From assembly GCF_054482525.1 (NCBI RefSeq), contig NZ_CM137006.1: a stretch of 64,000 nucleotides of DNA, one strand, 5' to 3'. This document shows, one piece after another, positions 12,001-18,000 of the stretch (positions within the stretch are counted from its first letter, which is position 1; the number at the start of each line of letters is the position of its first letter). A program made the position numbers.

Positions 12001-15000
12001 ATTGCTCTACGCTTCTCTCTGTAGAACACCTGTCTTCGGTATTTTGGCGCAAAAACTATGTGATATTTACAGTTCCATCGGGTGTGCGCTAAGCTCTTTT
12101 CGTTCCCCATTGGGACCCCCTTTTGATTTCTTGTTTGACACTTGCAGTTGCCAGACCGCAAGGTGTTTTAACAAATCAAAAGGGGTTTTAATAACTGGCT
12201 TAAAGCTGAAAGCTTTCCGGAACCCCCAGCCTAGCTGGGGGTTTTCTGTGCACAAAAACAACGGGCGTGCCATACGCCCGTTTCAATACTTAACGCACAT
12301 GTGTTTTGGTTTAGTCATCATCCGGTTATATGTATTTTAGCCAGGAATGGGTTAAACCATTCCTATATAACTAAAAAATTGAAACCTTATTCTCATGTCA
12401 TGCTTATATTCGTCATTATCGTTATATAAAAAGGCCAACCATAATGTTTAGCAAATTGGCACAAAGTAGTATAAAGGCTATGTTTTAATTACAGGATGTT
12501 CAGTCATTTGAATGTATAACATTTTAGCTAAACAAATCTAAAACGAAGTGAATAATTTAATGTTTTCACTAAATCTCATTTTGTTTAATATCTATCGAGA
12601 TTTCTTGCTTTAAATTTTGTTTTATATAAACAATGGTTTTAATTTTTAATTAATTTGTTTTTTTGAGGGGGTAATATACTCATATGCAAAATCAAGAAAT
12701 AAACATCCTAATGAACCATATTAAATACCGTGGGATAAGACATAACAAATGAAGTGGATAGTAATTGACACGGTAATTCAACCTACATGCGGTATATCTT
12801 TTTCAGCCATATGGGGTGATATGAAAATGATCATCTGGTATCAACCTACTATATTTCTCACTCCTGGAAGTATATTTACACCGGTTAAGTCTGGTATTAT
12901 CTTTAAGGATAAAGAATACCCTATTACTATTTATAACATCACACCATTCAACAAGGATTTATGGATTTTACTCAAAAGCAGTCAAGAGTGTCCTCCAGGA
13001 GAAAGCGAAATAACAAATAAATGTTTACATAATAGTTGTATTATAAAAATATGCCCATATGGACTCAAGTAATGGGCTTCATATAAATATGCTCGACATG
13101 CTATTAATAATATCCACATAAATAAAACAACGGGCGTGTTATACGCCCGTTTCAATATTTAACACATGTAGAGATTACATGTTCTTGATGATTGCATCAC
13201 CAAACTCGCTGCATTTCAGCAGTTTAGCACCTTCCATCAGACGTTCGAAGTCATAGGTTACGGTCTTGGCGTTGATTGCGCCTTCCATACCTTTAACAAT
13301 CAAGTCTGCGGCTTCAGTCCAGCCCATATGGCGCAGCAGTATATAAAAACCATGAGTTCAACTCATTGATATTTAATGATAAAAATCATTTTATTGTCTT
13401 TTTATTAGCCAAAATCAACTTTATTCAACCGTTTGATTTCATTGACGTTCGTTTTTATTTTGGGGAAAGATTTTCTCTACCATTTATATCAAAATTGCAA
13501 GTCTACATTTTATTAACATCTCAATACATGTGAGGCCTTGCAAGCCATTGCTAGACCTTATGTGTCTCAGTTTTGTCCCACTACGACCTGCACAGCAAAT
13601 AAGAAAATAGCGGTGATATCAAACAGTACAGAAGTCTTTTTTCTTTCAAATGGAGATACTGATTAACCCGTTTAATTGTACTCCTCATGGGTAATGTTAA
13701 GGCACAGGAACCAAATCACTATTGTGAATTTAATTTCACTATAGTAAATTTGATAACTCGTTTTGTATCTCAAGACACAAGCAACGACCACTTTAAGGAA
13801 GATAACATGTTAAAAATCAGAATGTCGCGACCATCTGAAGCACCAGAAATTATCCAAATTTGGAAAAATTCCGTTGATGCCACACACGATTTTCTTACAG
13901 CCCATGACCGGCAGGAGATTGAAAAAGAAGTTGTCAGCTTTTTTTCAGAAACCCCTGTGCTGGTAGCAACAAACCAGGAAGATCAGCCACTAGGATTCAT
14001 GTTTTTGCATGAGGGACATTTAGAGGCTCTTTTTGTTGATGCGTCAGCTCGCGGACTTGGCGTCGGGAAACATCTGATCTCACATGCGCTGGCACTACAT
14101 CCTGATCTAAGCGTTGATGTAAATGAACAAAATCATCAAGCTGTAGGCTTTTATCAACATATGGGCTTTAAACTTTCAGGACGTTCCGAGCGGGACAATC
14201 AAGGCAGACCCTACCCTCTATTACATCTTTATAAGGCAATGTGACATGATAATTTTAGGAGAATTACATCATGGATTTTTTTGGCTGAAAGCGACAATGT
14301 AAGAACAACTCTGGCCGCTATCTGGGTTTCTCATTTGGTACTCGCTGGCAAAGGTAAGAGCAAGACAATCACCGGCTTGTAAATGATGAGTCTGATGATT
14401 GACTCGAAAATCAAGGCTGCCGCTTAACATCCATAGAGTTTGTCCAGAAAGATGCTCATTTGCAGAGGCAGGGATAGTCAATTGCCCCATAGGGGGGATT
14501 TCAACTTTTATTAGTTCCGGACATGCACCCGCTGGGGACAAAGACCAGCGGGTAATGCCTGTTTCTTCATCAATCCAATGTTGTTGCTGGTCAGCCAAAA
14601 GTACAAGTGAATTCTGTTGCATCTCAAGCTCTGCAAAAAGCTTTGATAGCGTAATATTCAGTGCATTAGCTAACCGACTAAGTATTGTTGCACTGGGGCT
14701 TGAAGTGCCTCGTTCAACTTTGCTGATCATCGCCTGACTGACACCAGATCGTTGGGCAAGCTCTGTAACAGTCAAGTTTCGAGACTTTCTGAGCTTGAGT
14801 AACAAACGTGCAATATCGCTATCGACTATCTGATTTTTAGCTCTTTTATCCATTCTTCTCCCCTCTTTCACCGACCTGATTATGCCATTACATAAATTGC
14901 GATTAAATACATGATTTTACACGTCTCAAATGCATTTTTTCTATACGTTATAGCTTTAGAGTAAGAGCTGGTAACTTCAACTTCCTTATTTGGCACATAA

Positions 15001-18000
15001 CAGTCCTGGATACAGTGACGCAAAGTTTCTTTACAAAAACCTAGCTACATAGAGGTTAATCATCGTGTCAAATGTACTGTAGAAATACCTAAAATAATAT
15101 TTTTTTGCTAATATGCGTATAAATGAATAACTATAGACAGATAAAAATATCAGCAAAAAGAAAATTTCCAGCATATTAAACCACAACAATAATACAACAC
15201 TTGGCAAGTTGCCCATAAAGAATGAATAAAACGAAACAATAATTCAAACTTAAACAAACTATAAACAGTTAAACAATATACAATTGACTCATTAAGTTAG
15301 ATATAAAAAATACATATTCAATCATTAAAACGATTGAATGGAGACCTTTTATGCGGGCGAAACTTCTGGGAATAGTCCTGACAACCCCTATTGCGATCAG
15401 CTCTTTTGCTTCTACCGAGACTTTATCGTTTACTCCTGACAACATAAATGCGGACATTAGTCTTGGAACTCTGAGCGGAAAAACAAAAGAGCGCGTTTAT
15501 CTAGCTGAAGAAGGAGGCCGAAAAGTCAGTCAACTCGACTGGAAATTCAATAACGCTGCAATTATTAAAGGTGCAATTAATTGGGATTTGATGCCCCAGA
15601 TATCTATTGGGGCTGCGGGCTGGACTACTCTCGGCAGCCGAGGTGGCAATATGGTCGATCAGGACTGGATGGATTCCAGTAACCCCGGAACCTGGACAGA
15701 TGAAAGTAGGCACCCTGATACACAACTCAATTATGCCAACGAATTTGATCTGAATATCAAAGGCTGGCTCCTCAACGAACCCAATTACCGCCTGGGACTC
15801 ATGGCCGGATATCAGGAAAGCCGTTATAGCTTTACAGCCAGAGGTGGTTCCTATATCTACAGTTCTGAGGAGGGATTCAGAGATGATATCGGCTCCTTCC
15901 CGAATGGAGAAAGAGCAATCGGCTACAAACAACGTTTTAAAATGCCCTACATTGGCTTGACTGGAAGTTATCGTTATGAAGATTTTGAGCTAGGTGGCAC
16001 ATTTAAATACAGCGGCTGGGTGGAAGCATCTGATAACGATGAGCACTATGACCCAGGAAAAAGAATCACTTATCGCAGTAAAGTCAAAGACCAAAATTAC
16101 TATTCTGTTGCAGTCAATGCAGGTTATTACGTAACACCTAACGCAAAAGTTTATGTTGAAGGCGCATGGAATCGGGTTACGAATAAAAAAGGTAATACTT
16201 CACTTTATGATCACAATGATAACACTTCAGACTACAGCAAAAATGGTGCAGGCATAGAAAACTATAACTTCATCACTACTGCTGGTCTTAAGTACACATT
16301 TTAAGAACGCCAACTAAAATTTCCCCGAGGTGAAAATCGCCCCGGGGAATAACTAGCCATTTCAATGTAACAATTAACCCTTAAAATAAACCCAGAAGGT
16401 TATTAACTAAATCACATAGAAAACCATCAATTATAGTGTGTATAAAATAGGCGACAGCGACCCAATTACAAATTAATGGTTCCAGAATATCACATCAAAA
16501 AACACGCTGTATAATATTATAATTAACATGTAGACAACTTGTAATAAACATTATCAGTCAATTGTTTTGTTTATTCCATCTGTGACGCCGATTATTTTCT
16601 CAAAATAATGAGATGGCGTGACACCATAATAATCTTTAAATGCACATATGAAATATGAAGTACTGTTATAGCCACATTTCTGGGCTACGACATTGATAGA
16701 ATAAGAGTTTGAAGTTATGAGTTTTTTTGCATACCTCATCCTAGTATCTCTCAATATTTCAGTAAATGACGTTCCTTCATCCCTTAATCTTTTTTTTATT
16801 AAACTTTCACTCGTATAAATCAATTCCGCAATATCTTTTAAATGCCATTGCCGCTCAATATTAAAACTGATTATTCCAGTAATCTTACAGGTAAATGTAT
16901 TTATATTTGTTAGTATAAATGAATTTACACTTTCACGTTTTTTGAACATGGCAAGTAAGGATATACATAGCCTTTCTTTTAACCAAAGGGAGTGTGAGTC
17001 TGCTATTTTAATCCCTTCAAACAGAGAAAAAACAAGCGATAATGGAGGTTCCTCTTCAGCAATATAGCCATTCTTATCAAGAGTAAATTTGCCAGGCAAC
17101 TCATTATTCACGTCGATAAAAAAGGATAAACATGTTTTCTTATCTATATCAACAATTCTTAGTTTAGAGGGGCATACTGGTAACTCTCTTCTAATTTTGT
17201 CGCTTACAATAAACAATGAATTTTTTTTGAATGAGATAACTCTCCTGTTTATAATTAAATCAAATGATTGACAGATGAAAACTACGGAGCAAACATAATC
17301 CATCTTGCACCTATCATAAAATTAAAACAAGTTGATAGTAGTCAAATAACAACCAATTAAATACACAATCATAATCAGGATGATGTGCATTTATATTTTT
17401 ATACACAAAATTATAGTTTGCAAATTTTAATAAATTTCATTTAAGATTAAATTATTATATGTATATTGTTTTTTATTCTAACGTATTTCAAAGTTACATT
17501 TTTCAACGCTTACTATGCTTTTTATTAACATAAACTCACTACAACGCACCTGAAACCTCTTGCTATATATATGTCAACCGTTTGAATTTAAAATAAAAAG
17601 AGTATCATTTTTACTTGCATTTCTTATCAAGTCACATTCAACAACAGTAAAAAAACATTATTAGAACCATTCAATTAACAAAAAACCAACATCCAGCTTG
17701 CTTAATTTTTCTTTATTAAACGATATTGAAAATCAATTGATAAAATACATCTAAACAACCTTTTTGGGCGCAAAAGCATAACATCAAACAAACAAATAAC
17801 ACACCGAAAAAACTCACAATTAATAACCTATGATATACATACTGTTTATTATGGTTGAATAAGCCACTCGATATCTGGTGCTACGGAAGTGTCCACACGG
17901 TTTAGCAGCACCCGATACTTTTTCCAGGCTTCCAGCAACGAGTTTTCTTCCTCCGTTGCATATACAGCTCACCTTTTTTCACCCACGATTAACCAACAGC

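Follow-up and report, generated by a model that had tools for sequence, protein, structure and literature searches.

Phage lambda has a non-essential b region between its attachment site and its tail-fibre genes. The right end of the defective Escherichia coli K-12 prophage DLP12, integrated at argU, reads tfaX, appY, ompT and attR. The protease OmpT sits in the outer membrane and cuts cationic antimicrobial peptides, whereas AppY, an activator of the AraC type, switches on stress, anaerobic and acid-resistance genes.

Regulators of the XRE-cupin type repress neighbouring genes locally, bind as dimers to palindromic sites and are transferred horizontally as units (PMC7901475). One of them, PA1884 of Pseudomonas aeruginosa, represses the adjacent GNAT acetyltransferase gene PA1885 (Trouillon et al. 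2021, PMC7901475).

The window analysed here, a stretch of 64,000 nucleotides, contains a lambda-like (lambdoid) prophage as a 48.4-kb insertion in the E. coli icd gene, with the duplicated icd 3' end at both borders (Table 1). The two copies form a direct repeat of 217 nt that is 94% identical. Its last mismatch is at 13303, and the identical stretch holding the integration crossover is 13304-13338. Strain PCN033, which lacks the prophage, has flanks 100% identical to those of this prophage and no insertion, with icd adjoining iraM; the identity breaks off precisely at 13338. The adjoining end arm of the prophage is found at about 93.8% identity in many genomes, and its last 63 bp (13520-13582) recur at the right end of DLP12. 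The tail-fibre genes at 18315-19355 (phrog_4563) and 19646-22030 (phrog_1419) are followed by Lom and J, and together these genes span 18315-26235. The side tail-fibre gene has an in-frame stop.

The preliminary description of this DNA placed a block of non-phage genes in an AT-rich context between the att core and the tail-fibre genes. All four genes are present as described, and the block (13339-17848) has a G+C content of 36.0%, against 50.2% for the rest of the prophage, with 31.5% in appY and 25% in the region upstream of it. The right edge of the block is a tfaX-like remnant, and homology to K-12 stops at its end (17959). A scan for consensus promoters is uninformative, with 14 sites against 17.4 expected. 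Position and composition are those of prophage cargo, as opposed to core chromosome. The block falls within the 48.4-kb insertion between the att repeats, and PCN033 has the same flanks without it. Nor is the pair of GNAT and regulator genes a ubiquitous core feature of prophage-free strains: PCN033 has none, and at least 80% of the stretch 13340-15340 is present in only 102 of 5,426 complete E. coli genomes.

Table 1. Features of the prophage borders and of the cargo block (window coordinates).
Feature	Position	Strand	Basis or remark
Left copy of the 217-nt repeat	13122-13338		native icd 3' end, displaced on integration
icd' pseudogene in the left copy	~13175-13338	minus	matches icd C-terminus 367-416
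End arm common to other icd-integrated prophages	13339-13582		94.6% to strain 582; 90.5% to K-12 DLP12
Variable segment with GNAT/regulator unit, 1,655 bp	13583-15237		99.3% in PhiR29_1/2; 99.6% in O157:H7 LSU61
Two 14-bp near-palindromes, ATCACTATTGTGAA and TTCACTATAGTAAA, 20 bp apart (predicted operator)	13715-13748	+	59-92 bp upstream of GNAT start
GNAT N-acetyltransferase, 145 aa, YjaB paralogue	13807-14244	+	Pfam Acetyltransf_10/1/7; NCBIfam NF007807
XRE-HTH + cupin transcription regulator, 194 aa	14269-14853	minus	convergent with GNAT
Regulator-ompT intergenic region, 497 bp	14854-15350		AT-rich, 29.6% G+C
ompT, omptin outer-membrane protease, 317 aa	15351-16304	+	Pfam Omptin 433.9 bits; NF008222 708 bits (cutoff 537)
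Recombination junction interval, ompT 3' end	16247-16298		SNP pattern: O157-type alleles left, DLP12/strain-582-type right
appY, AraC-family activator, 249 aa	16554-17303	minus	HTH_18 and HTH_AraC above cutoffs
Very AT-rich region upstream of appY	17304-17848		colinear with K-12 DLP12
Tail-fibre assembly gene remnant (tfaX-like)	17850-17959	minus	partial tfa annotated in strain 582; tfaX in DLP12
Integrase gene	60319-61461		adjoins right repeat copy; phrog_7244/phrog_1
Right copy of the 217-nt repeat	61522-61738		phage-borne icd 3' end, now joined to icd
icd, fused to phage-borne 3' end	61575-62825	minus

In our interpretation, the icd-integrated lambdoid prophage carries 13339-17848 as its cargo (“moron”) region, at the position of the lambda b region. 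It would have been put together by recombination from two known modules: OmpT and AppY, as in DLP12, and a self-contained two-gene unit in which a YjaB-like GNAT acetyltransferase is paired with an XRE-cupin regulator. Taken as a whole, with the acetyltransferase under a ligand-released local repressor, this explanation is considered quite probable.

The block is a mosaic. Its left part, from att to ompT, matches the icd prophages of O157:H7 strains and the isolated phage PhiR29, and its right part, from the 3' end of ompT through appY to the tail-fibre remnant, is of the type found in DLP12, strain 582 and phage PhiR68_2. Matches to either type break at the end of ompT. Strain 582, DLP12 and PhiR68_2 have 182 bp in place of the 1,655-bp segment with the GNAT and regulator genes; the pair, initially noted as unfamiliar from DLP12, is truly absent there. 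Among isolated phages, PhiR29_1/2 have GNAT, regulator and ompT, and PhiR68_2 has ompT and appY; matches to the ompT region also occur in phage Kati and others. The exact four-gene combination was found in none of the 5,426 complete genomes. It is also missing from all 50,697 phage records, which, like the in-frame stop in the side tail-fibre gene, is a point against the cargo interpretation. Since each piece is known from other prophages and phages, the block is an ordinary, newly shuffled example. The GNAT/regulator pair is not new either, being annotated in O157:H7 icd prophages and in PhiR29_1/2 (as “putative N-acetyltransferase YjaB” and “Xre-family with cupin domain”).

Both genes of the DLP12-like module are intact. 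OmpT is 315/317 identical to K-12 OmpT, full length and above the curated cutoffs, and the alignment shows both catalytic pairs of an omptin, Asp103/Asp105 and Asp230/His232 (precursor numbering). The regulator first called “appY-like” does belong to the AraC family, but the qualifier can be dropped: it is AppY itself, identical to the K-12 protein at 249/249 positions. The two genes had been described as known from the same position in DLP12, and this is correct: they lie at its right end, after tail-fibre remnants.

The GNAT protein scores 51.8 bits with Acetyltransf_10 (cutoff 23.6) and 233.9 bits with NF007807 (cutoff 134), and matches YjaB (PDB 2kcw) with an E-value of 6e-49 and 55.7% identity over 140 aa, which makes it a YjaB-related GNAT acetyltransferase. 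For the starts of both genes, we followed RefSeq at the O157:H7 locus, which is 98-99% identical. Conserved Shine-Dalgarno sequences back these starts, 13807 for GNAT (not the longer open reading frame from 13687) and 14853 for the regulator. The genes are tail to tail as first described, with stop codons at 14242-14244 and 14269-14271 and a gap of 24 bp, in agreement with the 25 bp given before. The N-terminal domain of the regulator is a clear HTH_3 (62 bits, cutoff 23). Cupin_2 scores 21 bits, under the gathering score of 27.2, and it is the predicted structure that indicates a C-terminal cupin domain: in an AlphaFold model with a pLDDT of 88.2, the C-terminal beta-barrel matches cupins with TMt 0.73-0.80, while the model overall is most like 1y9q. 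A canonical His-rich metal site is not seen among the invariant residues of the regulator.

The twin palindrome upstream of the GNAT gene is the predicted operator of the XRE-cupin regulator. It is found upstream of GNAT in all six gammaproteobacterial loci and is near-invariant across four genera. In Acinetobacter, 51 bp are retained at 82% identity, and the twin palindrome is kept despite proteins that are only 62-71% identical. The motif has seven matches against 1.6 expected, and those at 13715-13748 are the sole sites in the block. Thus, the locus has both a conserved neighbouring target gene and a palindrome upstream of it, as is characteristic of XRE-cupin local inhibitors. A point against this assignment is the convergent, as opposed to divergent, orientation of the pair, which leaves the whole GNAT gene between the operator and the regulator gene.

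The pair is most likely a ligand-released local repressor controlling an acetyltransferase; we infer the repression, the ligand and the substrate. One regulator dimer would sit on each palindrome and block the GNAT promoter. Binding of a small molecule to the cupin domain would cause the regulator to let go, and the GNAT protein then made might acetylate that same molecule or a related amine, in detoxification or metabolism.

The same pair is found adjacent and convergent in Serratia, K. aerogenes, Acinetobacter, Providencia and Pantoea, among unrelated flanking genes. Its native neighbours change from one genus to the next and point to no substrate. GNAT adjoins the regulator in seven of the eight loci read in other organisms, the exception being a locus without a called GNAT gene (L008), and a regulator homologue at 43% identity has a divergent GNAT neighbour. 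In phage Evi, the pair (79.5% identity) lies between the replication genes and Q, and in an IMG/VR contig (L021), it adjoins a GGDEF gene (91% identity). The pair therefore occupies three different positions within lambdoid (pro)phage DNA, in addition to chromosomes of other genera. These contexts and the retained twin palindrome mark it as one self-contained functional unit, and Evi and L021 show independent capture by prophages. In most O157:H7 genomes, GNAT and the operator have been deleted beside IS1203 and the regulator is intact, so the unit is dispensable there. A more ambitious proposal is that the pair is an inducible small-molecule acetylation cassette for detoxification or resistance, taken up at least three times by temperate lambdoid phages because it protects lysogens from an amine-containing toxin or antibiotic, and that its insertion by ompT also created an EHEC-type distal promoter that raised OmpT expression in the icd-phage lineage. 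This can be regarded only as a tentative possibility, with the odds against it.

The segment also bears on the sequence upstream of ompT. Left of 15238, the sequence upstream of ompT is of the O157/EHEC type, and only the proximal ~113 bp are common to the K-12/582 type; since DLP12 has 182 bp instead of the 1,655-bp segment, its distal ompT upstream sequence differs from that of the window. The distal sequence has been tied to large differences in OmpT level and antimicrobial-peptide cleavage, and the EHEC type has been linked to 32-fold higher expression (PMC6854850). Along with the GNAT/regulator unit, the segment brought O157/EHEC-type sequence in place of the distal ompT upstream region, and altered ompT expression may be the consequence.

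A rival reading, to which the 32-fold effect lends some support, is that ompT is itself a target of the XRE-cupin regulator, either as its sole target or besides GNAT, so that the pair tunes OmpT expression. The regulator gene and ompT face away from each other over the 497-bp intergenic region, regulators of this family act on adjacent genes (PMC7901475), and in O157:H7 the regulator remains intact after loss of GNAT. However, neither the conserved palindrome nor its core occurs within 14854-15350, and five other genera, phage Evi and L021 have the pair but not ompT with it, so that adjacency to ompT is recent and specific to E. coli prophages. Control of ompT by the regulator is therefore considered improbable.

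Slightly less probable still is that the block is a remnant of an older icd-integrated element stranded beside the current phage, and not carried by the present prophage. The mosaic structure and a G+C content far below that of the rest of the prophage would fit such an origin, as would the tail-fibre assembly gene remnant (~17850-17959) that separates appY from the working tail genes, and the ompT-appY module also sits in DLP12, a prophage that has itself decayed. However, there is a single pair of icd repeats, and the internal third icd fragment expected of tandem integration is absent. The same end blocks, with tfa remnant and ybcY, occur in isolated phage genomes of 46-50 kb, and the 48.4-kb insertion is of packageable size. 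This evidence favours the reading of the block as cargo of the present prophage.

That the pair is a GNAT-type toxin-antitoxin system stabilising the prophage (like TacAT, AtaRT or KacAT), as a small GNAT and a small HTH protein on a mobile element might suggest, together with weak matches of the regulator HTH to the antitoxin models HipB, HigA, MqsA and PezA (all far under cutoffs), is very improbable and largely excluded by gene orientation: the genes are convergent here and in five other genera and form no co-transcribed operon. In addition, GNAT is a paralogue of YjaB, an ordinary chromosomal gene, the regulator model shows a cupin sensor domain in place of the RHH/DUF1778 fold of such antitoxins, and both the loss of GNAT with retention of the supposed antitoxin in O157:H7 and the lack of a called GNAT in L008 run against addiction logic. 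A known anti-phage defence system is likewise rejected, as GNAT has no match among the PADLOC-DB models and the regulator matches generic HTH models only.

The value of these observations is mostly one of tidying up, and current understanding is not overturned. ompT and appY travel on active icd-integrating phages, beyond the decayed DLP12, and the type of sequence upstream of ompT, O157/EHEC-like or K-12-like, is set by the presence or absence of the 1.66-kb GNAT/regulator segment. The pair itself is a clean, small, widely transferred unit of regulator, operator and enzyme with a precise predicted operator, and through it the ligand and substrate of a YjaB-family acetyltransferase should be easy to seek.

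DLP12 shares with the window the order and orientation of the genes at its right end, 98.4% identity over 15238-17959, with identical AppY and near-identical OmpT, and the 63-bp att-side element. It differs in its site at argU, in its decay and in the missing GNAT/regulator segment. The O157:H7 icd prophages (e.g., that of LSU61) and PhiR29_1/2 (PV340556, PV340557) have the order icd', GNAT, XRE-cupin and ompT, as in the window, at the same integration site and with 98-99.6% identity to 12702-16350; downstream of ompT, however, the place that appY has in the window is taken by cargo that includes an alpha/beta hydrolase and a methyltransferase. Conversely, the icd prophage of strain 582, at the same site as the window prophage and 98.4% identical over 15238-18400, and PhiR68_2 (PV340576) run from icd' through ompT, appY and the tfa remnant to the tail fibres, like the window, but without the GNAT/regulator segment. 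YjaB of E. coli resembles the window GNAT in length and fold family, but the two are distinct paralogues, and the window GNAT has a regulator dedicated to it and is distributed horizontally. Units of the PA1884/PA1885 kind share with the window pair an XRE HTH with a cupin, a GNAT neighbour, a palindromic site and horizontal transfer. The window pair differs from them in being convergent and phage-borne, and the likeness is one of architecture and neighbourhood, with binding and repression predicted.

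Two direct copies of the icd 3′ end, 217 nt long and 94% identical (13122-13338, 61522-61738), enclose 48.4 kb with genes for integrase, terminase, J and Lom as well as tail fibres. Since the final mismatch between the two copies is at 13303, the crossover is placed within the identical stretch 13304-13338. The flank at 1-11500 is 100% identical to the prophage-free E. coli PCN033, in which icd directly adjoins iraM with no insertion, and the 100% match ends precisely at 13338. PCN033 thus provides an essentially isogenic empty site, and none of the cargo block is there; this runs counter to the refuting case named in the preliminary description, in which the GNAT acetyltransferase and its regulator would be ubiquitous core genes at this locus in prophage-free strains. 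Only 102 complete E. coli genomes out of 5,426 contain at least 80% of the stretch with this pair (13340-15340). The interval between ycgX and iraM contains an IS200C transposase gene on the minus strand (11652-12161), which PCN033 has annotated in the same position, together with an STnc490 RNA (12120-12243) that scores 146 bits where the gathering threshold is 56.

The four genes first listed for the block are all present, and family searches bear out their assignments. The start of the GNAT gene was set from the RefSeq annotation of a near-identical O157:H7 locus and a conserved AAGGAAG Shine-Dalgarno sequence, while the mechanical ORF begins at 13687. The GNAT and regulator genes converge, their stop codons separated by 24 bp, in keeping with the tail-to-tail arrangement, “25 bp” apart, described earlier. 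The block (13339-17848) is AT-rich, with 36.0% G+C where the remainder of the insertion has 50.2%; the value falls to 31.5% in appY and 25% in the region upstream of it. The AraC-family protein is identical to K-12 AppY at 249 of 249 positions, and OmpT matches K-12 OmpT at 315 of 317, with both catalytic pairs retained. Within the block, an RNA family search gave nothing but a sub-threshold IS009 match on the tail-fibre assembly (tfa) remnant, no tRNAs were found, and a promoter and terminator scan gave no excess over shuffled expectation.

Features of the cargo block and the predicted operator
Feature	Coordinates	Strand	Basis, sequence or remark
Near-palindrome 1	13715-13728		ATCACTATTGTGAA
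Near-palindrome 2	13735-13748		TTCACTATAGTAAA
GNAT acetyltransferase, 145 aa	13807-14244	+	family searches
XRE-HTH regulator, 194 aa	14269-14853	-	family searches
ompT	15351-16304	+	family searches
appY (AraC-family)	16554-17303	-	family searches
Tail-fibre assembly gene remnant	~17850-17959		right edge of cargo; comparison with strain 582 and K-12

Between the tfa remnant and the tail-fibre gene is a 102-aa ORF (phrog_1443; 17979-18287, minus strand) with no PADLOC match. The side tail-fibre gene (19646-22030, minus strand) has exactly one in-frame stop, at 20306-20308, which divides a phrog_1419-type protein of 793 aa into ORFs of 574 and 205 aa. Its homologue in strain 582, an E. coli with an icd-integrated prophage, is intact. 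The prophage may be without working side tail fibres, or there may be a sequencing error at this position. Periodic repeats within the gene (21053-21532) run in 21-nt steps and 189-nt units that are 83% identical.

Parts of the block are carried by isolated phages. PhiR29_1 and PhiR29_2 have GNAT, regulator and ompT in that order, 99.3% identical, and their depositors labelled the first two products “putative N-acetyltransferase YjaB” and “Xre-family with cupin domain”. PhiR68_2 has appY and ompT at its end, and the part from ompT to the tail-fibre genes matches several other isolated phages, including Kati. It is thus unlikely that the block is an older element stranded beside the prophage: there is only a single repeat pair, and packaged phages have the same ends. 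The pair also occurs elsewhere in phage genomes. In phage Evi, a 79.5%-identical pair lies between the replication genes and Q, and an IMG/VR contig has a 91%-identical pair beyond a tail-fibre assembly gene, beside a GGDEF protein and a P4-like integrase. A scan of viral contigs yielded five loci only. Our literature search turned up no publication on PhiR29 or on the pair.

The pair can also be lost in part. Most O157:H7 genomes have lost GNAT and everything to the left of it beside IS1203, with the regulator and ompT kept. In O157:H7 JEONG-1266, which represents the common O157:H7 lineage, the GNAT gene is reduced to its final 93 nt beside IS1203 (3733-5095 of that locus). The deletion reaches leftwards to an autotransporter gene fragment and has taken iraM and the blu/ycg genes with it, leaving both regulator and ompT intact.

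Relatives of the pair with proteins 82-93% identical are found in Raoultella, Klebsiella aerogenes, Serratia, Pantoea, Proteus, Kluyvera and others, far more of them for GNAT than for the regulator. In Acinetobacter, identity falls to 61-62% for the regulator and 71% for GNAT. The same convergent arrangement of neighbouring genes recurs in Serratia marcescens, K. aerogenes, Acinetobacter haemolyticus, Providencia and Pantoea, with different flanking genes in each of these five genera and no consistent clue to a substrate. A regulator with 43% identity, encoded on a 6-Mb contig, has a GNAT gene as its divergent neighbour. In the Serratia and Klebsiella loci, nucleotide homology is limited to 13716-14930, that is, the two genes and short upstream stretches. 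At one S. marcescens locus (5586-6278) the regulator gene has no called GNAT alongside, whereas both genes are present in two sister genomes; either GNAT was lost locally or gene calling may have missed it.

The strongly conserved non-coding element upstream of GNAT consists of two 14-bp near-palindromes, 20 bp apart. It hardly varies among four genera, and each of the six gammaproteobacterial loci examined has it; no further copies were found in the cargo block, and a specific search close to ompT and ahead of the regulator gene likewise found none. GNAT is a paralogue of YjaB (PDB 2kcw, E 6e-49, 55.7% identity). The structure model of the regulator (pLDDT 88.2) has an HTH at the N-terminus and a cupin barrel at the C-terminus, and it matches an HTH-cupin regulator of Vibrio cholerae, 1y9q, best of all. 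Taken by itself, the cupin domain aligns to cupins with TMt 0.73-0.80; no His-rich metal motif was found among the invariant residues of the regulator.

Trouillon et al. showed the XRE-cupin regulators of Pseudomonas to be local repressors of neighbouring genes that bind palindromes as dimers, in units exchanged by horizontal transfer; the sole target of one of them, PA1884, is the adjacent GNAT gene PA1885 (PMC7901475). From this precedent, the twin palindromes and the cupin fold, we infer that the regulator would repress GNAT from the twin palindromes and that a ligand in the cupin domain would release it. A GNAT toxin-antitoxin system is largely excluded, as the genes are convergent and the partners are a YjaB-type GNAT and a cupin protein. 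Known defence-system models gave no match.

We do not think that the regulator controls ompT, because the region between the two genes contains no operator-like site. The segment may nevertheless matter for ompT, since its right end forms the sequence farther upstream of that gene, which is of the O157 type; of the ompT upstream sequence, only about the nearest 113 bp are common to the K-12/582 type. According to a passage of PMC6854850 that cites Thomassin 2012, EHEC and EPEC differ 32-fold in ompT expression because of distal sequences lying more than 150 bp upstream. On this basis, the ompT upstream sequence of the prophage is predicted to be of the high-expression type. An action of AppY via the neighbouring iraM was considered and dropped, as the AppY paper reports the contrary, with no up-regulation of iraP, iraD or iraM (PMC10057817).

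At neither end of the GNAT/regulator segment (13583 and 15237) were IS ends or flanking repeats detected. An IS element as its vehicle was suggested by an “integrase core domain” annotation in ETEC6333 and rejected, as this reaches only about 2 bases into the 175-bp match (13521-13695), which is non-coding DNA beside a P4-like integrase. A 63-bp element by the prophage end (13520-13582) is 90% identical to sequence by the argU-side end of DLP12, the cryptic K-12 prophage, and is thus common to both despite their different integration sites. It may, like its 175-bp version, be a shared recombination or arm-type sequence.

The initial observation is confirmed and its interpretation as prophage cargo is supported: known modules have recombined here in a new way, and as cargo of a prophage the region is ordinary. 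Its value is modest and twofold. The pair is defined as a conserved unit of regulator, predicted operator and enzyme, captured several times by lambdoid phages, and it is tied to the ompT upstream sequence type.

The four-gene arrangement was found in one place in no complete E. coli genome and no phage record, and its parts have separate relatives. O157:H7 LSU61 has icd′, GNAT, regulator and ompT (97.9% over 12702-16350), but different cargo genes beyond ompT. The strain 582 prophage has icd′, ompT, appY, tfa remnant and tail fibres (98.4% over 15238-18400), but lacks the pair. The SNP pattern within ompT switches from O157-type to DLP12/582-type at 16247-16298, which makes the prophage a recombinant of these lineages. 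As the preliminary description had stated, DLP12 carries appY and ompT at the same right-end location, after the tail-fibre remnants tfaD, ybcY and tfaX, colinear and 98.4% identical with 15238-17959. The pair, in line with that description, is absent from DLP12, where, as in strain 582, the 1,655-bp segment 13583-15237 is replaced by the same 182 bp, which has no sequence in common with it.
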